Virus record (IMG/VR): IMGVR_UViG_3300037189_006220
Span: 1 to 64,000 of that record
Direction: 5' to 3' (one strand)
From: a virus
DNA length: 64,000 nucleotides
The notes beneath the pieces were generated by a model. That model ran no database searches. It saw only the letters and a program-made list of their open reading frames with translations, and was not told the origin of the DNA. Both the position numbers and the translations under genes were made by a program. Positions 11,101-29,141 of this stretch are shown piece after piece; within the stretch, counting starts at the first letter, position 1; each line of letters starts with the position of its first letter.

Positions 11101-14100
11101 AGGCTGTCGAGGCTGTCAAGGTTTACGGTGTTAACGAGTATGCGTGATGTAGCTGAGCCGTTCTGCCCAACAACAACTGTGCTGACATCGTATCCACCGT
11201 CGGGGTTCTCTTCAATGGAGAGAATCTCGTGAATCTCTAGTTCACCAGTCTGGTCATTAACTCCCGGTACGAGGTCGTGAACTTGTACATCACCTTGGAC
11301 GTAGTCACGCTGGGAGAGAAGAGCAGTGTCGCTTGCGCTCATTTCTACTGGCTTACCGTCACCAAGGTCAACAACCTTCTTGCCGCTGTCTGGGTTGGTA
11401 GTAACATCTACCTCGCGGGGAGCAGTGGCAGGAGTTGTGTTCAGTGGCTCTGTACGGCGAGGAGCCTTCTCAGCCTGAGGTGCTTCTGGTACTGATGGTG
11501 CTTCTGCATTGGCAGGACGGTTTCCAACACGACGCTCTGAACCATCGGTACCTGACTTAGTGCTGATAATTGTCAGGTTACGCGAGGTAATGTTGCGCTG
11601 TGAGATAGACCATGAGCCGTCTGGGTTCTGGAACTTAACGAATACATAGTCGGTGTAGTTGTATCCACGGGTAAAGTGGCTACCAATACGGTTGACAACG
11701 TAACCGATACGACCATCCTCGTGCTGAACAATGTCTCCAGCTTCGATTGGTGTCATGTGGTCGCTAGAAATCCATGTGTCGTAGTGGTTCTCGACATCCA
11801 TAGCGTGCATATTAATAGCGGTAATAAGTTGCTGGAGTTGCTGGTTGCTTAGACCAGTCTCTTGGCGAAGACGGGAAACAATGTCATCCTCTAGACCGTA
11901 GCGAGTTACGTTATTGAATACCGAGTGGATAACTGCATCAGTAACCTCATCGAGCGAGCTTGCATTACGAATAGCTTCGATGGTCTCGCGCTGAAGTGGC
12001 TGGTCACGAAGGTGCTCTGGGCGACCTGTCTCTGGGTTGATAGAGTCGCGCTGGATTGAACCACGACCATCTGTATTACGGTTAAATGTACTCTCCGGGT
12101 TACCGTACATCATCTTGTAGTAGACCGCGTATGTCTTGTTGTTGAGAGCGCGAGCTGACTGTGTGAATGTGGTAATTCGTCGAGACTGTACCTCTCCACT
12201 CGTGAGGTTTGTCTCACGCATGTAAGTGTAGAAGAACTCGTCAGTAGTACGAATCGTAACGAGGTCGTAACGCATACGAGTACCGTCTGCACGGGTCGTT
12301 TCGCGAGAAGCAAGAACAAGCTCGCCATCCTCGTTGTAGTGAGCGTCAGGGTAGACAGCTTTCATAGCCTCTAGAACCTGACCGGGGTCAGTTAGACCAC
12401 GACGAATAGCTGGGGGAACCTCGCGGAATCCACGCTTGAGGTTGACATCTCCGGGAGCTGCTTCAGGAAGCTGAGAGAGTTCGTCAATAACAGCTTGAAC
12501 ATCTTCGGCAGATGGGTGCTCCTGTGCGAGGATGTCTCGTACACGAGTACGGTCTTCCCTAGAAAGCTCACGGTGCTCGTAGAGGTGCTGAGCAAGGTAG
12601 ATTTTTCCGAATGAAGCCTCATTACCTGTTTCGCTAGGCTCCGGGATTGCGCTGTTATTAGGTGTTACGTTCTCGGAAATAGTGTTGGTATCGCGACCAC
12701 GCATCTGGAGAGCATCACGAATAGCCTCAGTTGGAATATCAGCTTCCGGTCCGGGCTGGTTACCCTCACCGGGGAACTGAAGACGTACAGTCTGGTCACC
12801 ATTCTTAAGAGCGTTCTCAAACGCAGTCTGAAGCTCTTGTACATTGTGAGTATTGGCAATAACAGATGGGTCATCTGATGTACCGTCAATGCCTATCCCC
12901 TTAGACTCGTATGGAGCTGGGTCTAGAGCAAGCTCGGTGTTTGTAGCCTCGTTCTTGATGAGCGGAGCATGAGGAGCCTTATCTGGGTTAGCAGTTGTAT
13001 TGTCTTCCTTGTAGTTACTCATCTGGGTAAGAGTGAATCTCTTAGGCTCACCATCACCAGTAGTACCAACAAAGTTAGTGTTTCGGGTATTAGGGTTCTT
13101 GTCCTCTAGAAGAGTAGGAAGAATCTCTCGGTTCTTTCCTTTGTAGTAGAACTGAATTTTGTGACCATTTGTAATGGCATCACTAATCTGAGCCTTAATA
13201 GACTCAAGACCATTAGTAGTATCGATTTGTACAATCTTGCCAACTTCAGACTCTGGAGTTGGAGCTTCACCGGGGAGGGGCGATTCAGGAGCATTTTCTG
13301 GAAGCTTAGCTTCTACCTTTGGCTTTCCTTGAGGAAGTTCCTCGATGCTAGCTTGGTCTCCCGAGTAGTCAATAATTTGTTGGTTAGTGAGGACACCCTC
13401 TTCTCCATCAAAGCCACTGTCTTGGCTCCAGACGAAGCTAACATTCCAGCTATTGTCTCCAGTCTTCTCAGCTGTAAACATCTGGTCTTGGCGACTAGCT
13501 TCCTCATATGGGTATCCGGGAGTAGACCATGCAATCTTTGTGCCAACTGGAGCGTTCTCTACGAAGTTAATTCCACCAGTCTCGTCGCCCACCTTGTAGT
13601 CACTAACAAGAGCATATTTGTGCCACTGGTTGATAGCAGGAACTACCTCATTATTGAAGTAGTCAATACGAGCTTGCTTAGCATCCTTGTATGCCTGTGA
13701 GGTGCTGTCCTTGGTTCGCTCTTCCCTCTCAGTAGCAATAAACTTTGAGTATTCTTCGTTCTTTGCGTCGAGGTTTGCAATTGCTTCCTCGCGGTTTGTG
13801 GGAGCAGAGGTTGGTGCAGTAGGTAGATTAGCTTCGGGCTTTGCCTTACTCTCTACGAGGTTTCCCTTTTCATCCACCATGTAGGAGTAGTCAATGCCGC
13901 GACGACGAGCCTCATTACGGTAAGTTTTATCGTTGAATGTCTTAGAGCGACCAATGCCAATGCGACCCTCCTTCTCGCGAGCATTTTCCTCAGACATATG
14001 CTGTTCTGCTTCTTCAGACTGAGCAAGACGCTTAATTTCGTCATCAGTGAAGTCCTTAAGCTCTTTCTTTGAGCCGTCAGGATTAGTAAGCTCTACGCCA

Positions 14101-15029
14101 TGTCCCCAAGGGGTGGGAGCTTGGGGCTTCTCTGCGGGAAGCTCTGCTACCTTCTCCTGTGCAGGAGCGTTCTCTGGGTTGTTCTGGATGTCAGCAATCT
14201 GACGGTCAATGTCAGCGTTCTCTTTTTCGAGGTTGTTGTACAGCTGACCACGGCGGTCAAGACCACGTTGCATGTTTGTGTTCTCGCGACGGTCACGGCG
14301 GAGCTGTGCAATCTTAGCTTGCTGTTCTGCGGAAAGACCGTTTGCGTCTGCGTTAGGGGCAGATGGGGCTTCGGGAGCATTGCCCTTTTCGCCAAGACGA
14401 GCTAGAACCTTGTCGCCGGGAAGTGGAGTCGGAGACTTTTCACCTTCGCTGAGCTGACCGTACTTATGAATAACCTCTGCCCAGTTATCAGCCGAGAATG
14501 ATTCTCCGTTTACGCCAGTAACATTGAACTTTCCGTCCTCCTGCTGGAGGGCAGTGTACTTGCCATCGTTGCTGTGGAACATACGAGGGTCTTTAGCATC
14601 CTGTGACCAGTTCAGAGGAGCGTTCGAGTATCCCATCTGGTCGATGTTTGGGATGTCTTTGTTGAGACGGTCACCAACATCGTGACCCTCAGCGTGCTTA
14701 CCAAGCTCAATACCGCGAGCCTTAAGGTACTCTGGGTCGAGTGAGCCAAGGATTTCCTGTACGTTTCCTGATTTGAGGTTGTAGAAACCGTCTTTTAGAC
14801 CCGGAACGTCGTGTACATAGAACTGACCTTCGCCCTCGTTACCTGTTCCACCAATGAAGGTACCCTGACCAGACATGGTCTGACCATTACGGTTGCGGAA
14901 TTTGAACTTTGCGCCGCGTCCCATCTCAATCCAGCGACCAAAACGGTCACGAAGCTGGGTACGCCACGACTCGTGGAAGTTTCCTGCTGAGATGATGGGG
15001 TCGATGTTATCGGGCACGTTGTTCTCCAT
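8178..15029 (-). CDS. Giant multidomain putative virion protein (WYL-like domain, internal repeats, C-terminal GNAT-like domain)
   Basis: 2283 aa; N-terminal RDRFGRWIEMG; AITNGHKIQFYYKGKNREILP..KRFTLTQM; C-terminal DRGGGFST..VHAALEDGGYTWGKTGF. Confidence 0.7.
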   Translation of the reverse strand: MENNVPDNIDPIISAGNFHESWRTQLRDRFGRWIEMGRGAKFKFRNRNGQTMSGQGTFIGGTGNEGEGQFYVHDVPGLKDGFYNLKSGNVQEILGSLDPEYLKARGIELGKHAEGHDVGDRLNKDIPNIDQMGYSNAPLNWSQDAKDPRMFHSNDGKYTALQQEDGKFNVTGVNGESFSADNWAEVIHKYGQLSEGEKSPTPLPGDKVLARLGEKGNAPEAPSAPNADANGLSAEQQAKIAQLRRDRRENTNMQRGLDRRGQLYNNLEKENADIDRQIADIQNNPENAPAQEKVAELPAEKPQAPTPWGHGVELTNPDGSKKELKDFTDDEIKRLAQSEEAEQHMSEENAREKEGRIGIGRSKTFNDKTYRNEARRRGIDYSYMVDEKGNLVESKAKPEANLPTAPTSAPTNREEAIANLDAKNEEYSKFIATEREERTKDSTSQAYKDAKQARIDYFNNEVVPAINQWHKYALVSDYKVGDETGGINFVENAPVGTKIAWSTPGYPYEEASRQDQMFTAEKTGDNSWNVSFVWSQDSGFDGEEGVLTNQQIIDYSGDQASIEELPQGKPKVEAKLPENAPESPLPGEAPTPESEVGKIVQIDTTNGLESIKAQISDAITNGHKIQFYYKGKNREILPTLLEDKNPNTRNTNFVGTTGDGEPKRFTLTQMSNYKEDNTTANPDKAPHAPLIKNEATNTELALDPAPYESKGIGIDGTSDDPSVIANTHNVQELQTAFENALKNGDQTVRLQFPGEGNQPGPEADIPTEAIRDALQMRGRDTNTISENVTPNNSAIPEPSETGNEASFGKIYLAQHLYEHRELSREDRTRVRDILAQEHPSAEDVQAVIDELSQLPEAAPGDVNLKRGFREVPPAIRRGLTDPGQVLEAMKAVYPDAHYNEDGELVLASRETTRADGTRMRYDLVTIRTTDEFFYTYMRETNLTSGEVQSRRITTFTQSARALNNKTYAVYYKMMYGNPESTFNRNTDGRGSIQRDSINPETGRPEHLRDQPLQRETIEAIRNASSLDEVTDAVIHSVFNNVTRYGLEDDIVSRLRQETGLSNQQLQQLITAINMHAMDVENHYDTWISSDHMTPIEAGDIVQHEDGRIGYVVNRIGSHFTRGYNYTDYVFVKFQNPDGSWSISQRNITSRNLTIISTKSGTDGSERRVGNRPANAEAPSVPEAPQAEKAPRRTEPLNTTPATAPREVDVTTNPDSGKKVVDLGDGKPVEMSASDTALLSQRDYVQGDVQVHDLVPGVNDQTGELEIHEILSIEENPDGGYDVSTVVVGQNGSATSRILVNTVNLDSLDSLEAYRTREASTPEAATQNEIDRVFAEFREADTSGLSADELNRVMEALRMREGDTTFNAQQMNDIARELSALPRRNQPTPEENAKAVNDLASSIVDSKPDDTVDVSNAVNEAKIRTSELENNQEALSPATSPEERFAELNRDTLENEEVPSTEWLQYAPVGTQVSRVDGDGTVVETRTKQADGTWQSDRAGAARYTSEFFTLNDWLISSVPENNAEAQRQEHEQEQINSGDPIPNRDWLQHTPAGTVVFEVDNEGDPINYVKQEDGTWKNTSSGATMSEASMYRKADNQALSLDRTPAPTQAQPESNWSDLPAGANIPDMAWMENAPTGVIVRLSNSNDAYIKDVNGQWHRVNALGDRTSEDVPANAFDRVLADGRVHRIAPAEVRLEDSGFPEPAPLPAPPATYNTPTNKVEAPQAPREATPAPVVNTGELTSPDWESIPENTPINNPESFANAPTGSVVTVNGATYIKKEDGLWYSQLLEDNNRPQTGSSNEDMANANLFQREGSTIPTQVWEPQADGSAVTDPSYIENASVGARVTVTRPDGSSRTWIYAGSDIWVNQDRGETAYTSSIASRVSEANSSVVARPTFDPSAPEYQPVTVSSASDLRNVPVGTHLSGSTTGGQSRWFRKNADGSWSQGSPTGATHTRDEVWVADFIRRNGSAIYHTPESRQATSIINNMRVASSRGSNRNSDLITPADLDPSVPAVARRGGPIEYTYEPGSYEGVMTPEEFKDLVKNMDDPNNRRKVLQMVEDQFTGKQFGIHTLGAPVSQGGRSFKFTIFNKDGKDVGYTIRTFKFDNNGEMYIYNDYMYIPAKPDRGGGFSTNYFEAWDDFGRAYGVNTMQVHAALEDGGYTWGKTGFDYNGGKVPTEIKSRLKTQLRMAIANNRLFDAQKLNEIIQKINSGVQVHAWEIANIQGQRSSYPTHGGTLGRELTNGSNWLGTRRIPTLEEAKAKRLKDIAKNEAKKNQRNNRGN

Positions 15030-15057
15030 GAGTAAATACTATAGCAATTTCCGCAAA

Positions 15058-15588
15058 TTAGGCGGAAATAGCCTTATCTGCTGTAGAAATAATGATTTCT
15101 GTGCTAAAGCCTTTGTCGTGCATTTTGAGCTTGGCTTCGTAGAATTTTCGTGTAGCGGTGTTTGGCTCTGCTTTGAGGGCAGAAGCAAGAATTGGACGTA
15201 CTTCGTCCTCAATTTCGGCAGTTTGAGCCATGTAAGACGCAACAATGGCACGCTTCTGGAAACTTGATACCCAGCGAGTAGACAGCGGGTGACCTTCGGG
15301 GAGGAGGTCAGTGTGCTGAGTAGGTCGTTTTGTGGCTGGATTCTCTACAGTAGCGAAAAAGTTGGCTACAGCGCGTTGAACAACAGCATCTCCGTTATGC
15401 TCTTCGCGGGCAATAATTTCGTCAATTGTAGAATAGGACACATATTGCACGTCAGCGAAGTTTTCGTTCTGAGAATCGGCAAAAGAGCGCAGTGAAGCAA
15501 CAAGAGACAGTGGAGCAATAGGCTTCGCACCAAATACAGGTTTTACAGGCTCGCGCTCTGCCATATCAATCAGAGAATTGATGGACAA
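15058..15588 (-). CDS. Hypothetical protein
   Basis: 176-aa ORF, GGAG RBS before TTG. Confidence 0.6.
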   Translation of the reverse strand: MSINSLIDMAEREPVKPVFGAKPIAPLSLVASLRSFADSQNENFADVQYVSYSTIDEIIAREEHNGDAVVQRAVANFFATVENPATKRPTQHTDLLPEGHPLSTRWVSSFQKRAIVASYMAQTAEIEDEVRPILASALKAEPNTATRKFYEAKLKMHDKGFSTEIIISTADKAISA

Positions 15589-15664
15589 TTATGGCTCCAT
15601 TCACAGAAAATTCTACGTCTTTACTATCATACAGGTTTGTTTGATAGTGACTTAGATTTTATGT

Positions 15665-17380
15665 TTAGGAAACCTGAGAGTCTTTTGTGTTTTCTCCGGG
15701 CATCGCTGCCTTTTTAGCAGTCTTAGCTGGTACCTTAGGAGCTGGCTCTTCAATAGACGCTGTTGCCTGAGGTACTTCTGCCGGTGGTGTCTGCTCTGCT
15801 GGAGTAGCTTCTGGGGTTGCAGGGGCTTCTGGAGTTGTGGGGGACTCGGGTGCGCCCATTCCGAGTGCTTGCTCAACATTTGGTGGAAGCGGAGCAACAG
15901 ACTGCTCTTGGCTAGTCTGGCGAGCCTTGCCCATAATGTCCGGCGCAATCGTTCCAAGAAGAGCCTCAGTTAGCTCGGGGCTAATTGAACCCTTCTGGAT
16001 AAGCATACGGATTGCTGTCTCAGTAGCGTCGGGAGCATCTGCCTCCGAGAAGCCGTGAGCGTGTCGCCATGCTGCATATGAGACAGCCATCTTGTCGAAT
16101 CCCGAGTCAGCATCTGCCGCGCGGTCATTACGAGTCGAGATAGCCGAGGGGTCATACCAAACAACAAGACGGTTGACATCTGCCTCATCGTATCCGAGTG
16201 AACGGAGGTATGGACGCAAGTAAACAACGGTCAGAGCATCTGAGATAAGAAGAAGCAGAGGCTCGATATGTGCCTTGTAGAGTGACTCGTCAATCTGTAG
16301 AGCGTTCGAGTACTTAACATTAGCAAGACCAGTAACAACATCTTTAGGAACGTCGAGTCCTTGCAGGATACGCTCTAGTACGCGGTCTGAGCGCTCAGCT
16401 AGCGCGGGGTCAAATGAACGCTCAAACTTGAACTGCTTAATCTTGTCACCCAGTTCGGCGGGACCGCGGATGATAAGAGGGACAACAGCAGAGGCGGATG
16501 CTTCATCGGAGATGGGCGTAGTCATCGCGTCGATGAGCTGCTCTTCAAACTGGTCTTCTTCTTCCTCCGCAACAACTCCCGTCGGGTCGCCATTCTCATC
16601 GTATGGGTAGTCGGGGTCGGTAGAAGAGGCAACGGATAGACCATCTGGCAGGTATAGCGCACCAGCGTTAAGACGTGAGCGAGCCGTGCCACGGAAGGTA
16701 CGGTTCAGGAGCAGAAGCTCGGCACATAGGTCAAGAAGACCCTTGAGGCTCGAATCTGGCTCGTCTGAGAAGCGGGGGTGTGCACGCCAGATGCGTCCAA
16801 TGAATGAGGACGAGGGCAGTGGAATATTGTGTGCAGTTGTGGAGTCGTGACGAGGGCGAATCTGGTAGTTGCCCTTACCGTCCATCGAAAGCTCGTCAAC
16901 GGAGCGGATATCCCAAGACTCGGGGTAGCCAGTACCAATACGAGCGGGCATCTGTACGAGGTAGCACTCTCCGGTAACAGAGAGGTTAAGAGCTGCATCG
17001 CGGAGAAGCCCAGCCTGTCCACCATACGCAGAGTCAAGACGCTGTAGAGCGCGTTCCGCTGCGGCGGAGAGTTCAGGGCTAATCTTGTCGGACTCTTTCA
17101 CTGAGATAGGAGTCTCGGCAGGATTCTCATTTACTGCGGCATATAGACGGATGCGGGAAACAACGGAGCCAACCAGATTGAAGGCGTACTTGATTTCACC
17201 AATTGCGTCGTAGTATTCCCACGCCTCTTGTTGCCACTGGGTGACAGAGGATGCGCGACGAGCCTTAAACTGGTCTGATTCAGTTTTGTCACCAATCTTT
17301 ACCTGAGCTGCGGCAGCTGTAAGCGCACGCGGAGCCGAGTAGACGGCTGGTACTGGTGAGTCTTTTCTGAAAACAGCCAC
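15665..17380 (-). CDS. Portal protein
   Basis: WQQEAWEYYDAIGEIKYA, LNLSVTGECYL, RIWRAHPR, ASAVVPLII motifs typical of actinophage portals; 571 aa. Confidence 0.85.
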   Translation of the reverse strand: MAVFRKDSPVPAVYSAPRALTAAAAQVKIGDKTESDQFKARRASSVTQWQQEAWEYYDAIGEIKYAFNLVGSVVSRIRLYAAVNENPAETPISVKESDKISPELSAAAERALQRLDSAYGGQAGLLRDAALNLSVTGECYLVQMPARIGTGYPESWDIRSVDELSMDGKGNYQIRPRHDSTTAHNIPLPSSSFIGRIWRAHPRFSDEPDSSLKGLLDLCAELLLLNRTFRGTARSRLNAGALYLPDGLSVASSTDPDYPYDENGDPTGVVAEEEEDQFEEQLIDAMTTPISDEASASAVVPLIIRGPAELGDKIKQFKFERSFDPALAERSDRVLERILQGLDVPKDVVTGLANVKYSNALQIDESLYKAHIEPLLLLISDALTVVYLRPYLRSLGYDEADVNRLVVWYDPSAISTRNDRAADADSGFDKMAVSYAAWRHAHGFSEADAPDATETAIRMLIQKGSISPELTEALLGTIAPDIMGKARQTSQEQSVAPLPPNVEQALGMGAPESPTTPEAPATPEATPAEQTPPAEVPQATASIEEPAPKVPAKTAKKAAMPGENTKDSQVS

Positions 17381-17383
17381 TTG

Positions 17384-17674
17384 TTAGTTCCTATCAAGAA
17401 TGGTACTAATAATTCCGGTCAGAGCAGAAAGACTGAGACCAGCAAAAATAATGAGCATAACGCTAGGTACAAGTATATAAGAGATTACAACAAGTGTTGC
17501 CACATAAATGGAAATACACCAGTCGCAGGTCAGCAGGTATCCGAGTTGCGTTGAGGGTGGGAAACGCTTCCAAACACGATTGCGTAGAGGGGCGGTGATT
17601 TGGTCTCGCGTAATAAGTCGCGTCAGACGGAAAGTGGCAAGGGCAAGAAGAATAAGTGGAATGGGTTCAAACAC
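17384..17674 (-). CDS. DUF1360-like membrane protein
   Basis: LATFRLTRLITRD..LLTCDWC pattern. Confidence 0.75.
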   Translation of the reverse strand: MFEPIPLILLALATFRLTRLITRDQITAPLRNRVWKRFPPSTQLGYLLTCDWCISIYVATLVVISYILVPSVMLIIFAGLSLSALTGIISTILDRN

Positions 17675-17677
17675 TGG

Positions 17678-18037
17678 TTAAGCCTCCATTACCGAGTATG
17701 CGTTCCACGAGCGTAGGCGCGAGCCACAGCCACAGTTCTCATCTTTACGGAAGGCAACCTTAGTCCCGCTGGCGGTGGCGAGATACGAGTCGGTGGTTGA
17801 GACGTTTGAGGCTTTGCTAAGAGTTGCGGGGTCGTAGGGGTCATTCATAACAATGACTGGTCCGTCAGAGCCGTCTATAGCAACAATGATTTTCGTGTTC
17901 GTGACTACAACTCGGGCGGTAGAGACTTGGTGTGAGTTAGGGGACGGCGGGGCAGAACGGAGTTCTTCGAGGGGGAGCGGGTCTGCACCTGCGAGGAATG
18001 AGACGAAGCAGGGAAATAGGTCAATCTTGATACTCAT
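17678..18037 (-). CDS. Hypothetical protein (CGCGSRL motif)
   Basis: 119-aa ORF in operon. Confidence 0.65.
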   Translation of the reverse strand: MSIKIDLFPCFVSFLAGADPLPLEELRSAPPSPNSHQVSTARVVVTNTKIIVAIDGSDGPVIVMNDPYDPATLSKASNVSTTDSYLATASGTKVAFRKDENCGCGSRLRSWNAYSVMEA

Positions 18038-18519
18038 GGGGTTAATTTAATCCTTCGATACATAGCACGGTAGGTAACACCCGCGAGGTTGGCAAGCTCC
18101 TGAATGGGAACTCCTAATTCATTGTACTGGCGACAGATATCAGTAAGTTCCTTATTTGCTTTTGTCGCCGGATGCGAGGGCGTATAAGTAGAGCGATACG
18201 AGCGGGCGATGGGGGCAAGCTGAGCAATACGCGACTGGATGTCCTCGGGGATGCCCGGGGAGGGAGGCTTCTTATGTACGTACTCTTTATTGATAGGAGT
18301 TGGGATAGGACGAATCGCAGGAGAGTTTGGAGTCTCCGTTACCCAGACCCGGACGGTTGAGCGGGGGCGGTTGATGGGGGAGCCAATGGCAGAGAGTGTC
18401 CAACCTGCTTGGTAAAGGTGTTGGCACCGTGAGCGTAGTTGCATTCCGGTGAGGGACTGGAGGAAGAGGGCTTCATCTTCGGGCAGAGACTGGTTACGAG
18501 CTGAACGGCGCATGGTCAT
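18034..18519 (-). CDS. Double helix-turn-helix DNA-binding protein (paralog 1)
   Basis: GWTLSAIG..RSTVRVW and GVPIQELANLAGVTYRAMYRRI. Confidence 0.7.
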   Translation of the reverse strand: MTMRRSARNQSLPEDEALFLQSLTGMQLRSRCQHLYQAGWTLSAIGSPINRPRSTVRVWVTETPNSPAIRPIPTPINKEYVHKKPPSPGIPEDIQSRIAQLAPIARSYRSTYTPSHPATKANKELTDICRQYNELGVPIQELANLAGVTYRAMYRRIKLTP

Positions 18520-18670
18520 AGTCTACTGCATCGAGGGCATTGTACAAAGCGGAGAAAGTAGTACCTTACGCTAATAGCTTTTGGTCGGTGAGAAGCCAGC
18601 CGTTTAGGAGAGGCGCGTCTCTAATCGTTTCCATATGTGTACTGAGTATATAGATAGATAGTTGAAAAAT

Positions 18671-18808
18671 TCAATCATTAAAATTCTCAATCATTTATAA
18701 AGTCAATCATTGAAAAAATAAATCATTGACAAAGTCAATCATTGAAAGTCTCAATCATTGAGGAAGTCAATCATTGAGGAAGTCAATAGTTGTAAGTGTC
18801 AATGGTTG
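18671..18808. repeat. Nine units of a 16-bp-period repeat, core TCAATCATT(GA)
   Basis: Cores start at 18671, 18687, 18703, 18719, 18735, 18751, 18767, 18783, 18799. Confidence 0.9.
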
Positions 18809-18841
18809 TAGATATCTATAGTCAGGGTACTGACTAATCTA

Positions 18842-18899
18842 ACTAAGCAAGTGCTTAGTCTACTGAGTAGATAGTTACCTAACTAAGCAAGTGCTTACT
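18842..18899. promoter_or_regulatory. Two copies of the palindrome ACTAAGCAAGTGCTTAGT (TetR-operator-like)
   Basis: 18842-18859 and 18882-18899 (second has one mismatch), 40 bp apart. Confidence 0.6.
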
Positions 18900-19047
18900 T
18901 GTGGATAACTTATACACAGGTTGTTGATAAGTTATACACATGTTGATAAGTTATACACAGCCTGTTGATAACTTATACACAGGCACTTGCCTACTTGTGG
19001 ATAACTTATACACAGGGGGCTTTACCCTTGTGGATAACTTATACACA
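18900..19047. promoter_or_regulatory. DnaA-box cluster 1 (six inverted pairs)
   Basis: TGTGGATAA or TGTTGATAA, 1 nt, then TTATACACA, six times. Confidence 0.85.
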
Positions 19048-19196
19048 GGCTAGTTACTCACAGAGCAATCCAACTATAAGCAAACACAATAGCTGCTATC
19101 AAAAGACTTAGTGTTTATGACTTGACTAATAGGCATAAGAGAGTATCGTTAGTTATGTACCTAGTTAGGTACAGAAACTAAACAGGGAGAAACAAA

Positions 19197-19304
19197 ATGC
19201 TAAAGACAATCACCAAGGTAGCAACCAAGGCACTCGGGAGCGTCAGCATTAGCGTCACGATAGACAAGTCAGGCGTAGCAATCAATCTAAACACAGGCAA
19301 GTAG
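19197..19304 (+). CDS. 35-aa peptide MLKTITKVATK... in its own cassette
   Basis: TTGACT at 19122, AGGGAG RBS, terminator hairpin 19306-19338. Confidence 0.65.
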   Translation: MLKTITKVATKALGSVSISVTIDKSGVAINLNTGK

Positions 19305-19350
19305 CAAAGTAGGGGTTAGGTAACTAGCCCCTACTTTTGTGCCCGCAATC

Positions 19351-19510
19351 AGGCGCACAGGGCAGACACGCGCACAGGCACAGGCGGGCAACACAGGCGG
19401 GCACAGGCAACACAGCGGGCAACCCCGCAACCCCCACAGGCGGGCGAGTCAAGGCGGGCAACCCTACGCACAGGCAACCAATAGGCAAGCCATAGGCAAC
19501 AACCCGCAAC
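19351..19510. repeat. T-poor ACAGGC / GCAACC repeat tract
   Basis: No T on the + strand over 19351-19448; repeated CACAGGC and GGCAAC. Confidence 0.7.
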
Positions 19511-19519
19511 GCGGAAGGC

Positions 19520-19833
19520 TGTGAATAACTTATCCACATGTGGATAACTTTTGTAGGTAGCCTGTGGATAACTTATACACAGCCTGTGGATAACTTCCCC
19601 GCACTTGTGGATAACTTATCCACAGGTTGTGGATAACTTTTTCAGCAAACTCACAGGAAACTCACAGGAAACTCACAGGAAGTTTTTACGGCAATGCCTG
19701 TGGATAACTTATCCACAGGTTGTGGATAACTTTCATAGGAAACTCTCAGGAAACTCACAGCATTCTTACAGCAAACTCATAGGCGTATTCTCACTAACTA
19801 CCCTGTGGATAACTTACGGCAACCTGTGGATAA
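19520..19833. promoter_or_regulatory. DnaA-box cluster 2 (14 boxes)
   Basis: Repeated TGTGGATAA, TTATCCACA and TTATACACA. Confidence 0.85.
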
Positions 19834-19887
19834 CTTTCTCAGGAAACTCACAGGTTTCTCACAGGGTTCTCACAGGAAACGCATAGG
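19651..19887 (+). repeat. 11-bp-period direct repeats TCACAGG-N4 in three blocks (about 13 units)
   Basis: Units at 19651/62/73; 19733/44/55/66/77; 19837/48/59/70/81. Confidence 0.85.
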
Positions 19888-20208
19888 CGGGTAACCCCGC
19901 AAACAACCCCGCAACCCCTGCCACAGAGCAAAGCCAAAACGCAGTAACAGCTGCTGCTGCGAAAAACGCATTGACGCAAAACGCGTCAAAAACATTCACC
20001 GCATAGCGCGACACGCCGGAAAAACGCCGTTGAGCAAAAAAAGTTTTGCCCTATTTTTCCGCGTAAACAAAGGGAAGTAGCCCCGCACGGCAAAAAACTT
20101 TGCCAAAATGGTTTTGACAAGTCAAAAAGTGCGATATCTTTGTATTTGTCAGCAACCGCAGACAAGCACCACCTAACCAGCACCACCTAGTTTCAGGGAG
20201 AAACGAAA

Positions 20209-20526
20209 ATGACCGCAACGACAATCGCCACCGCCGAAGCAACCGCTAGCACGCTCCGCGCATTCGACTCGTTTATGGAAGCAAAGCGTCTCGCAAAGCA
20301 AGCCGAAGCACTCAAAGCCGAAGCCGAAACCGCGCTCCGCGCTTTTATGGCACAGCACGGCGTGGAAGCAATCACGGTTGAGGGACGCACCGTTGTCACT
20401 CTCGCAAAGCGCAACCGCACCGGAGTAGACACCGCGCTACTCAAGTCAGCATTCCCCGAAGCGTTCGAAGCCACGCAGACCGCAACCGCCTACGACTTCC
20501 TACGCACCGCCGGAGTCACGGAGTAA
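20209..20526 (+). CDS. Hypothetical early protein, paralog of 35030-35332
   Basis: TTGACA at 20114, AGGGAG RBS, downstream hairpin terminator. Confidence 0.8.
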   Translation: MTATTIATAEATASTLRAFDSFMEAKRLAKQAEALKAEAETALRAFMAQHGVEAITVEGRTVVTLAKRNRTGVDTALLKSAFPEAFEATQTATAYDFLRTAGVTE

Positions 20527-20834
20527 CACGCACCAAAGCGAGAGAGTGCCTAGCCCTTAGGGGTTAGGCACTTTTTCGTTTGCCCTAGCGTTTTCGCACT
20601 CACCGCATAACCCCTACCGAAGCATTCACCGCATAGCAAAACGCAGGGCAACCCGTGGACGGCATACATTCACGCAGGACGCACCGTGACCCGTAGGCGG
20701 GCGTATACGGGCGCAGGGATACCTAGACTCACCCGTGACCCGTTAGCGCGTCAGCGTGGCGCACAGCGCGTTAGGCAACCGTGACCCGCAGACACGCACC
20801 CGTAAACACGCACAGCGGGCAGACACGCACACCC

Positions 20835-20900
20835 TGTGGATAACTTATCCACAGCCCCACACCCTGCCTGTGGATAACTTTTGCCCCCGCCTGTGGATAA
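20835..20900. promoter_or_regulatory. DnaA-box cluster 3 (4 boxes)
   Basis: Boxes at 20835, 20845, 20869, 20892. Confidence 0.8.
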
Positions 20901-21064
20901 CTTTTTCGTCGGCGGGCGTTCCGGTTACACGGAAAAACTACCCGCCCGCAAAACTACCGCGACACGCCCGGGAGTCAATACATTTTGCGTTTAGCCGTAG
21001 GTACAGTATGCTTGGAGTATCAAGCAATAACCGCTTGACTTAGTAACTAAATAAGGGAGTCATA

Positions 21065-21259
21065 ATGACCGCAGTCGCAGAATACCTAGTCAAGAGTCTG
21101 ACCGCCCTCGCGCTTGCGCGTGAGTACGAAGCAAGTCACCCTACGGTGGCAACGCCTAAGGTACGCGTCACTTGCCCCACTTGCGGAAGTGACAACGCCC
21201 ACCGTTTGTGGGTAAGTCTCACCGCCCGGTGCGAGTCTGAATGGCATAACGACAAGTAG
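21065..21259 (+). CDS. Small Zn-ribbon protein
   Basis: CPTCG..C; AAGGGAG RBS; terminator follows. Confidence 0.7.
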   Translation: MTAVAEYLVKSLTALALAREYEASHPTVATPKVRVTCPTCGSDNAHRLWVSLTARCESEWHNDK

Positions 21260-21405
21260 CCAAAGAAAGTGCCCCTAGCAATCGCTAGGGGTATTCTTTT
21301 GCCCACGCTCACCCGCACAATCGCGGGCGGGCAATTTTTTCGCGGGGTAACTTTTCCGTGTAACTATCCGCACCCGCGCCCGCAGAAAAAACTTTTGCTT
21401 TCGAC

Positions 21406-21434
21406 TTGACAATCAACAATCTTGGTCTTATGCT
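21406..21434 (+). promoter_or_regulatory. SigA-type promoter TTGACA-17-TATGCT (representative of the array)
   Basis: Similar promoters with TAGACT/TATGCT/TAGGCT -10 boxes at 22949, 23304, 23657, 24043, 24380, 24919, 25251. Confidence 0.85.
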
Positions 21435-21468
21435 TAAACTATAAGCAAACCAAACAAGGGAGAACAAA

Positions 21469-21723
21469 ATGCTTAGCAACCAAAACTACACAATCGCAAG
21501 CCCGCGTATCGGTCAGCGCATTTTCACTTTTGAGAATGGCTACGGCGCAAGCGTCATTCAGTCGCGTGACTTTCTCACGCTCGCACCGACGGGGCAGTAC
21601 GAAGTCGCCGTACTCGACGCAAGTGGAGAAATCACTTACGACACACCCGTCACCGACAACGTCATTGCCTACTTGGACGATAGCGGTGTGTATGAAGTGT
21701 TGGAGCGTATTCAGTCGCTCTAA
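21469..21723 (+). CDS. Hypothetical protein (FENGYGASVI family)
   Basis: Promoter-RBS-ORF-terminator cassette. Confidence 0.8.
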   Translation: MLSNQNYTIASPRIGQRIFTFENGYGASVIQSRDFLTLAPTGQYEVAVLDASGEITYDTPVTDNVIAYLDDSGVYEVLERIQSL

Positions 21724-21964
21724 GCGCGTCAGCAAAGTGCCCCGCTTCGGCGGGGTATTTTGTTGCCTAACGCGCCCGTAGGCGCAATCCGGCAAAAGTT
21801 TTTTGCCCTATTTTTCCGCGTCATTCCGGGCTTTTTCTTCCTACCGGAAAACTTTTTTGCCATTTTGGTATTGCGTGAATGTTCAGACGGTGTATAGTCG
21901 AAGTATCGGAACAATCCGATAGGCACTACCGGACAAGCAACACTTAGTTTCTAGGGAGAAACGA

Positions 21965-22222
21965 ATGAACAACTTTGAGAATGTAATCGTCACCGAGTCG
22001 GCTACCGAGCGCGTCTATGCTTTTGAGAACGGTAACGGCGCACACTTGGTTGTCGAATGTAACGACAACGGTTTCCCCACCGGAACATATATGTTCGCGT
22101 CAATCTTGCGTGGCAAGGTATCGCGCTACGCGCTTAATGTGACAATGAGCGAAGTTGTTTGTGCCCTTGACGCAATCAGCAAGTTTGACGCCGACGCGCT
22201 GGATATGGCACTAGGGCGATAG
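21965..22222 (+). CDS. Hypothetical protein, N-terminal paralog of 21469
   Basis: RVYAFENGNGAHLV vs RIFTFENGYGASVI. Confidence 0.75.
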   Translation: MNNFENVIVTESATERVYAFENGNGAHLVVECNDNGFPTGTYMFASILRGKVSRYALNVTMSEVVCALDAISKFDADALDMALGR

Positions 22223-22376
22223 AACCCCGTGAGGGAACCCCGGCGAGTGCCGGGGTTTCTTTATGCGCCAGAATGAGCGCGTACAGCGCGGGAGAGACTT
22301 GGACTTGCGTACCAAACAAAAAGGGAGTAAGGTCCCTTATGTAGGCAACAACGCCTACCAAACAAGGGAGAACACA

Positions 22377-22502
22377 ATGACCGTTACAGCAATCTTCGCA
22401 ACCGGCACACCAATCAGCATTGAGTGTGACCCGTGGCTAGTGGAAGCGGCAGTCGAAAGTTTCTACGATATCGGAGCAATCGCAGTCAGTACCAAAGCGT
22501 AA
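22377..22502 (+). CDS. 41-aa peptide
   Basis: AAGGGAG RBS, ATG at 22377, terminator follows. Confidence 0.65.
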   Translation: MTVTAIFATGTPISIECDPWLVEAAVESFYDIGAIAVSTKA

Positions 22503-22673
22503 AGCCAAAGAAAGTGCCCCGGGAAAATCCCGGGGTTTCTTTTTGCCCGCGCCCGGGAGTCTCGTTACACGGAAAACTATGCGCCCCGCTCGCGCACAAA
22601 CCGACACGCGGGGATTTTGCGTTTTTGACAATCCATAGTAAGATGAGTGTAGGCACTCAAACAAGGGAGAAAA

Positions 22674-22871
22674 ATGCCACTCACCAAAGACCAAGTAACC
22701 GCATTGGTATCCACGCAAAGCACCTACGGGTGTGGCGCAGACAATTGCGTGGCTTGCTACCCCGTACAGTACGGGTGCGAGTATTGCGGGGAAACCTACC
22801 CCGCGCCAATTGCTAACGGGGAAGTCTACACTTGCCCCGTGTGCGACTACACGGCTAACGCCCCCGCCTAG
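22674..22871 (+). CDS. Cys-rich Zn-binding protein
   Basis: Three CxxC pairs; RBS and terminator. Confidence 0.75.
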   Translation: MPLTKDQVTALVSTQSTYGCGADNCVACYPVQYGCEYCGETYPAPIANGEVYTCPVCDYTANAPA

Positions 22872-22983
22872 CCCGTAGTCGAAAGCCCCTAGTCACCCCC
22901 CGGCTAGGGGCTTTTTTCGCGCCTATGACACGCCGTAGCAGAATGGACTTGACAACCCTAAACCTATGCTTTAGGCTTAGGGT

Positions 22984-23190
22984 ATGAAGAAAAACACAGC
23001 TCGCAGTAATCGCGCCCTAGTCGCAGTCGTCTCGCTCATTCTCGCCGGTATCGTATCGGCAGACTTGCTCGGACAACTACGCGCAGGAAACGATTACAAC
23101 ACGCCCCTCGCCCTGACCGTAATCATTACGGCTACCGCGCTCGCAGTCACGCTCTTTACGGTGAATGTAGTTACCTACCGCAAACGATAA
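22984..23190 (+). CDS. Two-TM membrane protein, probably leaderless
   Basis: ATG 6 nt after the TAGGCT -10 box, no SD. Confidence 0.7.
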   Translation: MKKNTARSNRALVAVVSLILAGIVSADLLGQLRAGNDYNTPLALTVIITATALAVTLFTVNVVTYRKR

Positions 23191-23377
23191 CCAACAATCA
23201 AAAGAAAGCCCCGCCAAACACGGCGGGGTTTTTCTTTGCCCGCGTTAGCACTTACACGGAGAGAGTGCCAATCCGTATTCAGAAAAACATTAGTGCGGTG
23301 GACTTGACAATCGAAGCAATAAGTCTTAGACTTGATACATCAAGCACGGACTTGATACAAAGACAAAAGGAAACAAA

Positions 23378-23533
23378 ATGGATATCGACGAATTAATCAT
23401 CAAGCTTCAGGAAAAGCTCGGTTACGACACTCGCTCGGAAGTATTCCCGTACATTGTTGGAATGATGCGCGGTGTAATCACGGAGACGCAGTACAAATTC
23501 CTACTCGAAGCGGCGGAAAATATATCCCGCTAA
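23378..23533 (+). CDS. 51-aa peptide MDIDELIIKL...
   Basis: Promoter at 23304, AAAGGA RBS, terminator. Confidence 0.7.
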   Translation: MDIDELIIKLQEKLGYDTRSEVFPYIVGMMRGVITETQYKFLLEAAENISR

Positions 23534-23728
23534 CAAACAAAGAAAGTATCCCGGTTTGCGCCGGGATATTTTTTTGCTTCCGCCGTACACGGAAAACATA
23601 TCGATTAAAAATTTTTAACGGGAGACAAAAAATCTTATTTACTTAGTCGCTTCGACTTGACAATATGGCAACTACGGTGCTATGCTTGATACATCAAGCA
23701 AGACCGAGTAACTAAACAGGGAGTAAGA

Positions 23729-23917
23729 ATGAACAAGGCAATCGAAGAGATGACCGTATCAGAGCTGGAAAGCGAGCTGGACTGGATGGAAAGATACTTC
23801 GCAGAGTGCGCCACCAGCGGTGACGGTATCAGCACAAAGGAAACCGTGCGACACCGCGCAATGATTACCGAGCTACTCAAGCGGGGAGTCATCTACCAGT
23901 CGCTAGAGCTTTACTAA
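23729..23917 (+). CDS. Hypothetical protein
   Basis: Cassette architecture. Confidence 0.75.
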   Translation: MNKAIEEMTVSELESELDWMERYFAECATSGDGISTKETVRHRAMITELLKRGVIYQSLELY

Positions 23918-24118
23918 GGAACAAGCCCCGGGAAACCGGGGCTTTTCTTTTGTCAAAAATCCCCCCGCCCAAATTTTTTATTCGTATAGTTTTCCGTGTA
24001 ACCGTACTCGTAAAAATATATCTAACAATTTTTGCTGTTGATTTGACAAAATAGAAAAAAGCAATAGACTTGATATATCAAGTAATTTACTTGATAACAA
24101 CTAAACAGGGGAGTCATT

Positions 24119-24334
24119 ATGACCATTCACCGCGACATCAGCATCACTATCCCGTGGAACGAAAACCCGGGTGTAGAGACGCTCGTCAGTATGACAGAGC
24201 GCGCGCTGAGACTTGCCGGGGTACAGCGGTTCTACCGCGTACAATTCGCTGAGTCTGCCCGTGGTAAAAGCCGGGACGAAGTGCTTGACTTGATTAGGAA
24301 ACAAGTCGTCATCAAGTACGAAGACCGTGACTAG
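24119..24334 (+). CDS. Hypothetical protein
   Basis: Cassette architecture. Confidence 0.75.
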   Translation: MTIHRDISITIPWNENPGVETLVSMTERALRLAGVQRFYRVQFAESARGKSRDEVLDLIRKQVVIKYEDRD

Positions 24335-24458
24335 GAATTGCCCGGGCAACACGCCCGGGCTTTTCTTTTGCCACTTGACTTGACAATGCGGCAAATAGTT
24401 TATAGACTTATTACATCAAGTGAATTACTTGATACCAACTACATAGGGAGAAACCAAA

Positions 24459-24695
24459 ATGGCTAAGACCAAATTGGCACAGACGCTCAAGCGTAACGAC
24501 ACCGTACTGAACACGGGTCAAGAGAATGAATGGTATTACCGCCTAACCGTTCTCACCGCTAAGCAAGAGGATTACGATGACGGGTGGAGCAAATTCCCGG
24601 CAGTCAAAGTCGTTCTTCAATCCAAGCGTCCAGACGGTCAGACATTCGAACACAATGTCGTCTACCGTCTCGATGAGGAAGTCGCAGTAGCGTAG
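24459..24695 (+). CDS. Hypothetical protein
   Basis: Cassette architecture. Confidence 0.75.
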   Translation: MAKTKLAQTLKRNDTVLNTGQENEWYYRLTVLTAKQEDYDDGWSKFPAVKVVLQSKRPDGQTFEHNVVYRLDEEVAVA

Positions 24696-24984
24696 CAACC
24701 GAGAGGAACCCCGGCTAACCACCGGGGTTTTTCTTTTGCCTACCGAGTGGAGACTACCAAGAACCAGACGCGCTTACGAACGAAGATGCGTGTGAAGCGT
24801 GTAAGTAATTAGTGGAGATACCCCCGTGGAAGCGGGGGTATTTTCTTGCCCCGCGTTACACGGAAAACATACCACCTTAAAAAAATTTCGCCCGCTGGAA
24901 AATAGTTTTGGTTTGGACTTGACAAGATGCTTTAGCTGCTATAGACTTATTACATAAGCAATACAAACCAACAAGGGAGTAACA

Positions 24985-25206
24985 ATGAATAGCATCCAGC
25001 TTCGACTTCTCGTAATGGGACTCAAGCTCGAAATCAAAACTTGGGGAAGCGGTACTCGTCTCCAAATGACTCGCGAGTCGTCACTCAACACAATCAAGCG
25101 ACTGACCGGCGAGACTTTCGGAAAGGGACTCAAAGCCCGTCAGGAAGCCCTCGAATGGCTTCTCGAAATCGCCCGAGACAACGGAATCGAAATCGATACC
25201 AAGTAG
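24985..25206 (+). CDS. Hypothetical protein
   Basis: Cassette architecture. Confidence 0.75.
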   Translation: MNSIQLRLLVMGLKLEIKTWGSGTRLQMTRESSLNTIKRLTGETFGKGLKARQEALEWLLEIARDNGIEIDTK

Positions 25207-25285
25207 GCAGGAAGCCCCCCGAAAGGGGGGCAACCCCCCTACCGTAGGAATTGACAATCAGGAACAAAGTCGGTAGACTATAAAT

Positions 25286-25353
25286 ACAAGATAACTTTTC
25301 TCCCCCAGAAAAGAAACCCCCGGCACTTCTCCCCCGCCGGGGGTTTTTCTTTT
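25286..25353 (+). ncRNA. Candidate ~65-nt sRNA with two C-rich loops
   Basis: TTGACA(25251)-17-TAGACT promoter, no ORF; hairpins CTTTTCT-CCCCC-AGAAAAG and AAACCCCCGGC-ACTTCTCCCCC-GCCGGGGGTTT plus T-run. Confidence 0.65.
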
Positions 25354-25390
25354 ACCTAAAAATTTTTAAGGTAACAAGTTTTCCGTGTAA

Positions 25391-26806
25391 CTACCTAACG
25401 CGGAAACGCCCACTCCCGCTTCCGCTTCCACCTCGACGGCCCATATCCATTCGACGGGAAGCCATTGAGTGTGCGCTAATACGCCCACCAACAAATCCTT
25501 GTGGTGGCTTGATAAGCAAAGCTGTAAGCGCGTGTACCAAAGCATCTACTCGGTCAGGGGACTTGCCCTCGCCGGGAACCCAGCTAATCATTTGACTTTC
25601 CAGCTCAGCAAAGTAACCGACGTGGTGGACACGCCCTTGCTCGTATGCTAGTGTTACCGGCTCAGCGCGGAGTGCCTTACCAAACTTCGAGTGGACTTCC
25701 AATACTTGTACCGTAGGGTCAATAGTATGGATGGCTGCCTTGACAAGTGCGCCACCTTGATTAACTTCAGCAACCACGGGGCATCCCCACTTCTTAGCCA
25801 TAGCGACTACGCGTTGCGCCCAGACCGATGGTGCGCCCAGAACCGATGCGTCCTCGAGGACCCACGCGTTGCGCTTATACAAATCCCGGTCAGCGGTAGA
25901 ACCGACGACAACGATACCGCATTCGTCACGCGGGTTTTCAGCAACCGACGGGTCAACCCCAATTACACGGAAAGGCGTTACCGATGGCATCGTACTTTCT
26001 CGGTACATATCAATAATCTCGTCATTCCAAAGTGCGCCTTCAACCGCATCAAGCATCTCGCCATAAAGTTCTTGCGCAGCTAGACGCGTTCCAGCGTAGA
26101 CTCCGGTAATAGCATCCATATAAGACTCGGACAAGTTACCAGCGTTATCCATTGTTGAGCCACGGGATACACGGATTTTGTCAGGATTCTTCTCCGCTTC
26201 ACCAAGCAAAGAATAAAGTAGCGGTACGCGCTTCGGTGTGGTAGTAACTAGAATCTTCGGTTGTCTACCAAGACGCGTACCGACGCGCAAGTTATCGAAC
26301 GCAGTCATTCCAGCTGCGTCAGGGGTTTGTCTCCACGCTGCAACCTCGTCACCCCACGCGTGAGTAAATTGAGGACCACGCAAAGAGTCTGGCTCATCGG
26401 CGGTAAAGCAAGTAGCCGTATTACCATTGGGCCAAGTTAGTCGTCGCTTCGACGGCTCGTACAAAGGCATCTCGCTCGGTGCGGAAACATTGAGAATACC
26501 AGACTCACCTTCTACAATAACGTCACGCACGTCAGCCGCGGTACGTGCTACTAGAGCGAAGCGTCGCTTCCCGTCACTTGTTACTCGGGCTTCCTCGCGT
26601 ACCCACTCAGCCGCGCATCGGGTTTTACCGAAGCCACGCCCAGCAAGCAACAACCATATCGCCCAATCACCCTCGGGCGCAAGTTGCTCAGGTCGACCCC
26701 AGAAAGACCAATCCCACAAAAGCGAGTCGGGGTTGATTCCCTCGAGGGCCTTAGCGCGTTCTTCCTCGGGAAGTTCAGCAACAATTTGTGCGAGTGACTT
26801 AGCCAA
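25391..26806 (-). CDS. terL: Terminase large subunit
   Basis: AGRGFGKT Walker A, LRGPQF..WGDE, TTTP, GVDP nuclease, SPDRVDA. Confidence 0.95.
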   Translation of the reverse strand: MAKSLAQIVAELPEEERAKALEGINPDSLLWDWSFWGRPEQLAPEGDWAIWLLLAGRGFGKTRCAAEWVREEARVTSDGKRRFALVARTAADVRDVIVEGESGILNVSAPSEMPLYEPSKRRLTWPNGNTATCFTADEPDSLRGPQFTHAWGDEVAAWRQTPDAAGMTAFDNLRVGTRLGRQPKILVTTTPKRVPLLYSLLGEAEKNPDKIRVSRGSTMDNAGNLSESYMDAITGVYAGTRLAAQELYGEMLDAVEGALWNDEIIDMYRESTMPSVTPFRVIGVDPSVAENPRDECGIVVVGSTADRDLYKRNAWVLEDASVLGAPSVWAQRVVAMAKKWGCPVVAEVNQGGALVKAAIHTIDPTVQVLEVHSKFGKALRAEPVTLAYEQGRVHHVGYFAELESQMISWVPGEGKSPDRVDALVHALTALLIKPPQGFVGGRISAHSMASRRMDMGRRGGSGSGSGRFRVR

Positions 26807-26905
26807 TTTCTTCCTTCGTTAGTTACACGGAAAAGTATACCATCCCCGCAAAAAAGAAGAAGGGCGAAAGTTTCCCTTCGCCCTTGCGTTCTTTCTTGTT
26901 TTGTT

Positions 26906-27469: not shown

Positions 27470-27607
27470 TAGTTTTGTTTTCCTTGTCTTTTCTTATTTT
27501 TCTCCATTCCCCCTGTTATGGTATGTTATCCACAGCCTAACAGACAACCCTATCTAGCGCAACTCTGCATAAGAAAACCCCTCCGAAGAGGGGTTAGGCT
27601 CGGTGAG

Positions 27608-28545: not shown

Positions 28546-28563
28546 ACCCCCATAATACCAAAC

Positions 28564-29106: not shown

Positions 29107-29141
29107 ATCTTCAGCATACACCAACCAACAGCCAATGTCAA

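Follow-up and report, generated by a model that had tools for sequence, protein, structure and literature searches.

An array of 30 DnaA boxes within an untranslated repeat patchwork of a putative actinophage, a candidate inner end of a long terminal repeat

The window analyzed here, the whole 64,000-nucleotide stretch of DNA, comprises bases 1-64000 of the IMG/VR record IMGVR_UViG_3300037189_006220, a circularly assembled virus genome of 120,518 bp (GC content 48%) in which the 87-bp overlap of the record ends is a circular-assembly overlap and no biological terminal repeat. Our subject is a largely untranslated patchwork of 2.3 kb that sits between a leftward late operon and a rightward early region. 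From position 18519 leftward, the late operon consists of a 161-aa helix-turn-helix (HTH) gene, a 119-aa gene, the portal gene, and genes for giant head-region proteins; it crosses the record start, and its tail genes reach down to ~97.7 kb. The portal gene (15665-17380, − strand) matches phrog_776 at 6e-107, and its product shares 73% identity with the portal of DSL-LC01, an uncultured lake phage, and 59 to 66% with the portals of Microbacterium phages of 186 to 195 kb, including Pumpernickel and Cece. Because of these portal matches, we take the virus (G000 in the comparisons with relatives), judged by its sequence, to be an actinophage, probably with a freshwater host. The open reading frames (ORFs) and other features of the patchwork and its edges are as follows.

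18034-18519, − strand: HTH gene, 161 aa, first gene of the leftward late operon, weak HTH_23 match
18583-18632, + strand: leader element GGYCNGTGAG..GGC of ~22 nt, AATCGTTTCC, left edge of the patchwork
18654-18808: AT-rich 16-bp tandem array (repeats at 18662-18803), about nine units with a palindromic TCAATCATTGA core
18809-18897: six abutting palindromes, one of them repeated (TAAGCAAGTGCTTA)
18897-19048: DnaA-box cluster 1, 12 boxes (9 consensus, 3 TTATCAACA), spacing 22/19/22/33/33
19197-19304, + strand: 35-aa ORF with a GGGAG site, a promoter-like site at 19122-19149, and a hairpin plus T-run at ~19308-19340
19350-19448, + strand: T-less run of 99 nt in the T-poor tract 19320-19512, with CACAGGCGGGCA and CCGCAA repeats
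19513-19889: DnaA-box clusters 2 to 4, 14 boxes with 11-bp repeats
19643-19681, 19733-19783, and 19847-19876: 11-bp repeats AAACTCACAGG
20209-20526, + strand: 105-aa ORF with a hairpin plus T-run downstream at ~20548-20580
20597-20794, + strand: three copies of CCGTGACCCG (20684, 20733, 20779) and two of CAYTCACCGCATARC
20835-20903: DnaA-box cluster 5, 4 boxes
20924-20936, + strand: first copy of gTTACACGGAAAA, at the right edge of the patchwork and next to the last DnaA box

The original prediction described successive blocks of repeats and protein-binding sites, with only two small ORFs, at the point where structural and early transcription diverge. We observe all of the blocks it listed, namely the 16-bp repeats, the palindromes, the 11-bp repeats, the T-less tract, CCGTGACCCG in three copies and CATTCACCGCATAGC in two (plus one variant), as well as a third copy of CAYTCACCGCATARC at 19993, and late (structural) and early transcription do diverge at the patchwork. 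The ORF count holds for genes with expression signals, since only 19197-19304 and 20209-20526 have a GGGAG-type ribosome site, as on other early genes, together with a 3' hairpin/T-run; taken literally it does not, with many mechanical ORFs of 40 to 93 aa overlapping the repeats. The GC content is 17 to 23% at 18640-18720, the palindrome block (18809-18897) has a single-strand fold z of −3.4, and the 99-nt T-less run compares with 41 nt for the next-longest run in the genome that lacks any one base. The approximately 30 DnaA boxes that had been proposed are also there: TTATMCACA has 27 matches in the window versus 0.59 expected and no more than 3 in any of 100 shuffles, the whole 120,518-bp genome likewise holds 27 perfect boxes, 26 of which lie inside 18900-20900, and one-off variants (three TTATCAACA and one TTATTCACA) raise the patchwork total to 30.

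The boxes form five clusters, with 12 boxes in 18897-19048, 14 in 19513-19845, and 4 in 20835-20903, and 19 of them are on the − strand and 11 on the + strand. Their core unit is the 12-mer TGTGGATAACTT, found in 15 copies, all on the + strand and nowhere else in the 120 kb, which in 11 cases runs into a second, inverted box; the members of these inverted pairs are 1 bp apart. Boxes of the same sense follow each other at start-to-start spacings of 22, 19, 22, 33, 33 ... 22, 21, 22 bp, a helical phasing in multiples of 11 bp. Between 19606 and 19889, three modules of ~100 bp each consist of a box triplet (−,+,−) followed by 3 to 5 copies of AAACTCACAGG. The sole perfect box outside the patchwork (27526-27534) is in a 49-bp divergent gap flanked by a 187-aa double-HTH gene (26906-27469) and a 136-aa ORF.

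With respect to the protein that may occupy these sites, we observe that the array boxes share the extended consensus of actinobacterial oriC boxes (AAGTTATCCACAGG). In three actinobacterial genomes dnaA is flanked by the extended box, often at 22-bp intervals, and phased pairs of it are spread over many bacterial phyla. TGTGGATAACTT reaches at most 7 copies in any of 401 sampled Actinomycetota genomes, versus 15 in the 2.3 kb of the patchwork; this tally includes G154 (flagged unpublished) with one copy, which is not the maximum, and the scan returned counts only, with no host taxonomy. From this likeness we infer that the array is bound by host DnaA. The patchwork may also act as a sponge for several host regulators, as the original prediction suggested, but DnaA sites are the only ones that can be named among its repeat families. 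Literature searches on DnaA boxes in actinobacteriophages and in phage intergenic regions and terminal repeats found no paper in the collection searched, and one on DnaA titration had nothing on phage arrays among the 15 top matches listed.

A pattern scan brought in a second phage with an array of this size. In G407 (18,280 bp), whose portal and HTH proteins are 70% and 39% identical to those of the present phage, the 560 bp that abut the HTH gene on its upstream side contain 29 TTWTNCACA boxes; next come a CCGCAAG tract poor in T, a run of (GGGCTA)7, and small genes in rightward orientation. When the two regions are compared, the boxes alone align, both phages use AAGTTATNCACAGG, and the 27 boxes of G000 and the 29 boxes of G407 vary only at the position left open by the DnaA consensus. 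The CCGCAA motif occurs in three of the four untranslated regions compared, with weak similarity only. G407 is not among the best 80 of the 597 confirmed portal loci, the set that was examined among portal relatives, and none of these 80 has more than one box within 10 kb. In addition, box clusters are absent throughout five near-complete relatives, two of which (G001 and G002) share the phage replisome at 67 to 68% identity. Because boxes are few in the portal relatives and the terminase-to-portal interval of G001 is filled with co-directional small genes, we place the array outside the family core. In one further relative, L486, three boxes lie 2.5 kb ahead of the HTH gene, and among 267 viral loci retrieved with box-pair patterns the array of G407 is followed in size by arrays of 14 and 12 boxes. 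It may be a recurrent feature of viral contigs that divergent junctions carry box arrays. Two IMG/VR contigs of 7.4 and 12.4 kb, L393 (1714-1906) and L394 (1936-2127), have 11 to 12 boxes in ~200 bp at a divergent junction of small leftward and rightward ORFs and show no protein similarity to the present phage.

The comparison with phage T5 is, together with the idea of a genome end or entry signal, the part of the original prediction that holds up best: the untranslated repeat region 3 of the T5 left terminal repeat (LTR), its injection-stop region, has matching kinds of parts. In T5-type phages DNA transfer takes two steps and depends on the pre-early genes A1/A2. In the T5 record AY587007, the LTR spans 1-10139 and the parts annotated at 9194-10409 are palindromes C-J, inverted repeats D' and C', and direct repeats B and C, while direct repeat D (nine copies of ~15 bp) straddles the LTR end at 10139. 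According to one preprint, T5 has 8 DnaA boxes in pairs 3 bp apart within two 131-bp inverted repeats, the boxes being kept in 25 T5-like phages; its origins lie elsewhere, and membrane-bound DnaA is proposed to stop the entering DNA (Davison, bioRxiv 10.1101/866236). Both phages thus have a large untranslated stretch with a palindrome chain, inverted and direct repeats, and paired DnaA boxes, and they have in common the order boxes, palindromes, about nine short repeats, boundary. The T5 LTR carries early genes and has the region at its inner end, the corresponding boundary in the present phage being deduced; neither region appears to be the replication origin, for T5 as stated in the preprint and for the present phage in our reading. 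The two differ in extent (1.2 kb versus 2.3 kb, here with two small ORFs embedded) and in box number and arrangement, with 8 boxes in 3-bp-spaced pairs in T5 versus 30 boxes here, in five clusters with pairs 1 bp apart and 22-bp phased arrays. Furthermore, the T5 lineage and its host phylum are unrelated to those of the present phage.

Long terminal repeats also occur in closer relatives. In Pumpernickel (NC_073468) the last 10,096 bases are identical to positions 9868-19963 of the left end, and in Cece (OP068343) the repeat ends at 18,079. These direct terminal repeats of 18 to 20 kb hold small early genes, and their inner end is an untranslated, repeat-rich stretch of 570 to 650 bp, past which there are a cassette of oppositely oriented small genes, the terminase gene, the HTH gene, and the portal gene. 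The HTH homologues in both phages are annotated as HTH DNA-binding protein and stand directly after the terminase gene. The present phage resembles them in its portal (60 to 66% identity), HTH, and terminase proteins. The segment from 47.9 to 26.9 kb of the present phage is collinear with 0.1 to 18.2 kb of Pumpernickel, and a homologue of the 187-aa HTH protein is present twice in all seven of the Microbacterium phage records. The resemblance has its limits: the untranslated end of Pumpernickel and Cece has a quarter of the length seen here, their cassette is reversed in polarity with respect to it, and the terminase gene is outside the repeat, while Pumpernickel has no TT[AG]TCCACA box in 1-32000 (Cece was not scanned). 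The untranslated end of Pumpernickel has no nucleotide relative beyond its own two records.

We observe a step in sequencing depth at the patchwork. The phage is present in one sequencing run, available as contigs with one depth figure each, and in no listed RNA run; because the one run is probably the source sample, it is not independent evidence. The contig depths are as follows.

up to 17215: 36.1
17186-19635: 50.8
19611-19728: 60
19704-20273: 67.7
20244-25601: 74.1
25572-27698: 70.6
27689-28820: 75.3
28791 to ~33648: 78.4

Depth doubles across the patchwork (36 to 74), and by simple arithmetic a sharp doubling inside the contig of depth 50.8 would fall at 18.64 to 18.69 kb, where the conserved leader gives way to the 16-bp array. 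The depths of 60 to 68 fit a minor form (depth 10.3) that joins 19627 to 20834. Cumulative G-C skew over the whole genome has its maximum at 19 kb and its minimum at 100 to 105 kb, near the replication genes, and the polarity at 19 kb is that expected for a terminus or physical end. A contig end interrupts 49 of the 80 portal loci on the upstream side, in 30 of these 49 at 1 to 4 kb from the portal start, and 20 named loci whose contig stops 0.4 to 2.4 kb upstream of the HTH gene all have the HTH gene and, like the present phage, no large terminase (TerL) gene upstream. The minor form is seen in one contig (depth 10.3 versus ~74) that joins the box repeats at 19627 and 20834, skipping 1,206 bp that include the 105-aa ORF; this joint rests on a single contig with 20 letters on one side and may be a natural deletion variant or an array-length polymorphism.

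The array shows no DnaA-trio unwinding element. In the basal unwinding system (BUS), as described by Pelliciari et al. 2021 (PMC8287927), a box is followed by a spacer of at most 16 bp and then by trinucleotide repeats (DnaA-trios). With a threshold of at least four trios within 16 bp of a box, none of the boxes of G000 and none of the 36 boxes of G407 tested qualifies, while the dnaA-adjacent oriC of G119, used as a control, reads TTATCCACT-TATCCACA-ggcc-TTA TTA TTA TTA.

The best explanation, which we hold at about even confidence, is that the patchwork is the untranslated inner end of a long terminal repeat and carries a pad that holds host DnaA, with no origin involved. We consider the presence of a repeat boundary at or in the patchwork somewhat more probable than its absence. 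Its left edge at ~18.65 kb is most likely the inner boundary of the long terminal repeat and would therefore be one physical end of the virion DNA. Because there is no DnaA-trio unwinding element, the array would most likely, judging from its letters, bind and hold host DnaA without firing replication. The idea of a genome end or entry signal, which the original prediction proposed to check by mapping termini from read coverage, thus gains from the T5 likeness, from the 18- to 20-kb repeats of the relatives, and from the doubling of contig depth at ~18.65 kb, as far as one depth figure per contig and a possible strain mixture allow. The 16-bp palindromic repeats are the best candidate for a packaging or end-recognition site, because they are tandem, lie at the presumed boundary, and stand beside a DNA-binding gene of the packaging module. 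The element is real and unusual and is best filed as a T5-type terminal-repeat patchwork in a new form rather than as an origin.

In the mechanism that we propose, a T5-like patchwork would serve as the control and terminal region that separates the leftward late operon (HTH, portal, head, tail) from the rightward early region, and set into it would be an oriC-grade array of 30 host DnaA boxes, 19 of which point one way. Positioned on a terminal repeat, the pad may tether or pause the entering DNA end, as proposed for T5; it may drain DnaA from the host origin as phage copies multiply; and it may occlude the divergent early and late promoters. We regard tethering or pausing and the draining of DnaA as equally tentative roles of DnaA occupancy, with promoter gating less probable than either and some other role rated like promoter gating. 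A wider conjecture, which we consider doubtful, is that unrelated lineages with long terminal repeats (T5-like phages of enterobacteria and these actinophages) independently put DnaA-box arrays at the inner end of the repeat, so that DnaA capture would be a general, overlooked step of entry: the array would anchor or pause the genome end, and ~30 sites per copy would then soak up DnaA, halting host initiation and freeing a DnaA-occluded late promoter in an early-to-late switch timed by copy number.

Several observations weigh against the terminal-repeat interpretation with its DnaA-holding pad. The orientation bias of the boxes is opposite in the two phages (19 − and 11 + in G000 versus 20 forward and 9 reverse in G407), so no polar mechanism is conserved, and the role of DnaA at the T5 stop signal is itself a hypothesis from one single-author preprint. 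The preference of the host DnaA for TTATCCACA is an assumption. The BUS control is clearly positive in one of three oriC loci, two Bifidobacteriaceae origins being weak or negative, and the AT-rich stretch 180 bp from cluster 1 is, like the phased weak sites, a feature that an origin has. As for the terminus, its position is deduced from depth and from the relatives. Internal repeats do not account for the contig breaks at 17186, 20244, 25572, and 28791, and 13 of the 24 contigs are only 90 to 99% alike, indicating that related strains are present; the depths of several strains added together could look like a doubling, and the hotspot of contig ends could likewise stem from strain variation. 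TerL, which is outside the repeat in Pumpernickel and Cece, would fall inside a repeat that extends from 18.65 to at least 33.6 kb. Finally, the end motif of these two phages (CCGAAATA..AAGGRC|TTT) is absent in the present phage, and the predicted second boundary near 48 kb shows nothing distinctive.

In an alternative explanation there is no genome end at all and the patchwork is purely an internal regulatory region, with DnaA and other binders gating the divergent promoters and the dilution of DnaA over phage copies freeing late transcription as a copy-number timer. Promoter-like sites facing both ways at 18645-18674, 19073-19102, and 19122-19149 flank box cluster 1, the conserved leader of the late operon abuts the array, the early-region motifs start right after the last box, and a strain mixture can explain the depth step. 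We nevertheless find this explanation unlikely: it would leave to chance a near-exact 2.0-fold plateau that extends over 13 kb or more, long terminal repeats do occur in relatives, the palindrome chain and tandem repeats fit a terminal-repeat patchwork, and box orientation is not kept between G000 and G407.

A composite origin had also been suggested in the original prediction, and this reading is disfavored. Here, DnaA on the phased boxes and weak 11-bp sites would melt the AT-rich 16-bp region and load a helicase, possibly as an auxiliary origin. The patchwork has the cluster of DnaA boxes expected of an oriC, phased in multiples of 11 bp and, at 30, comparable in number to bacterial origins (120 chromosomal loci have up to 31 per 2.5 kb), as well as the stretch with a GC content of 17 to 23%, which palindromes separate from cluster 1. 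It is also intergenic, between divergent genes, and the skew switches at 19 kb; a depth step could come from a unidirectional origin, too. With bacterial oriC/BUS (PMC8287927), many consensus boxes, an extended actinobacterial flank, and helical phasing are likewise points of resemblance, from which the patchwork departs in having no DnaA-trios after any box, no nearby dnaA, and the opposite skew polarity, its extremum being a terminus-like maximum and the minimum of an oriC lying instead near the replication genes. Nor do the repeats lie beside an initiator gene, as tandem iterons do in an iteron-type origin; the neighbors are the packaging-module HTH gene and small ORFs. The replication genes at 84 to 97 kb (867-aa primase-helicase, exonucleases, Sak4, helicase, and PolA) are ~65 kb away, depth is flat or rising from 20 to 33 kb with no decay, and the boxes of T5 do not coincide with its origins according to the preprint. 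We rate an origin as improbable because the phage owns its replisome, including primase-helicase and PolA, and because relatives that share this replisome are free of box clusters. A further comparison is with the E. coli datA and DARS loci, which are non-origin clusters of DnaA boxes acting on DnaA (PMC8682772); the DARS core has oppositely oriented boxes, comparable to the (−,+,−) triplets here, while datA and DARS have 3 to 5 boxes plus IHF and Fis sites.

That the 12-mers are iterons for a phage protein, such as that of the adjacent HTH gene, and merely resemble DnaA boxes is very improbable. The conserved unit does exceed 9 bp (AAGTTATNCACAGG in both phages) and the HTH gene abuts both arrays; against this, the core matches the DnaA consensus exactly in all 27 and 29 boxes with variation at the consensus-free position only, the extended box also flanks dnaA in actinobacterial chromosomes, and the HTH gene is present in relatives without boxes. 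A captured host oriC fragment or an assembly chimera, suggested by a box density equal to that of chromosomal origins, is extremely improbable, given that the phage genome has no dnaA gene (no PF00308 match; dnaN was not searched for), the embedded ORFs bear the ribosome-site and terminator style of the phage, independent contigs span 17186-19635 and 19704-25601 without differences, and a second phage has the array at the corresponding place.

What the DnaA boxes of the T5 stop-signal region are for has been an open question since 1987, the sole proposal being a hypothesis. An unrelated phage group with about four times as many boxes as T5, in two diverged members and at an apparently matching structural position, allows this question to be approached by comparison and tested in a second system. 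An array that holds DnaA would be a cis-acting host-takeover element directed at the host replication initiator that encodes no protein, and such an element would escape gene-based annotation. In addition, a palindrome chain combined with tandem repeats and initiator boxes may flag the boundaries of terminal repeats in circularly assembled metagenomic phage genomes.

With respect to the remaining parts of the patchwork, the 35-aa ORF has no family match. The 105-aa protein has a weak match to the C-terminal part of phrog_434 and three homologues, two of them at 84 to 85% identity, with one distant related locus in IMG/VR (44%); it has no family and no solved relative, and its fold model is poor (predicted local distance difference test [pLDDT] score of 62). 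The patchwork region has no blastn match in INPHARED and nothing at gathering score in Rfam, and a metagenome scan with the dimer of the 11-bp repeat returned eight unrelated tandem repeats and no box arrays. At the left edge, the leader GGYCNGTGAG..GGC precedes the HTH gene of G000, of G407, and of 14 other portal relatives, always at the same place and in the same direction; it is a candidate late promoter, 5' leader, or end-recognition site. It is kept across relatives whose flanks otherwise do not align, and its carriers among the loci are L040, L050, L053, L070, L075, L087, L088, L090, L107, L108, L111, L113, L115, L392, and L486.

On the right, the motif gTTACACGGAAAA has 28 copies on both strands, confined to 20927-46813 (26 kb), and is probably an operator or upstream promoter element of early genes; it often lies just past a terminator, ~60 to 70 bp upstream of a TTGACA promoter. 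Perfect TTGACA-N17-TAGACT/TATGCT promoters number 14 in the whole genome, near-identical with a gacTTGACA start, 8 on the + strand and 6 on the − strand, and occur at 21406-32509 only. The TerL gene (25391-26806, − strand) lies between converging sets of early promoters. In the head module there are two giant ORFs on the − strand, 2219-7213 and 8178-15029; the 2283-aa product is essentially without annotation, and the 1664-aa product has a weak prohead-protease match and a ferritin-like domain (8.9e-13). In the relative G001, a dense k-mer repeat cluster at 66 kb was set aside as a collagen-like coding repeat, and a 1040-aa ORF of this genome (L373, 6014-9136) consists mostly of collagen-like G-X-Y repeats and is presumably a tail fiber.

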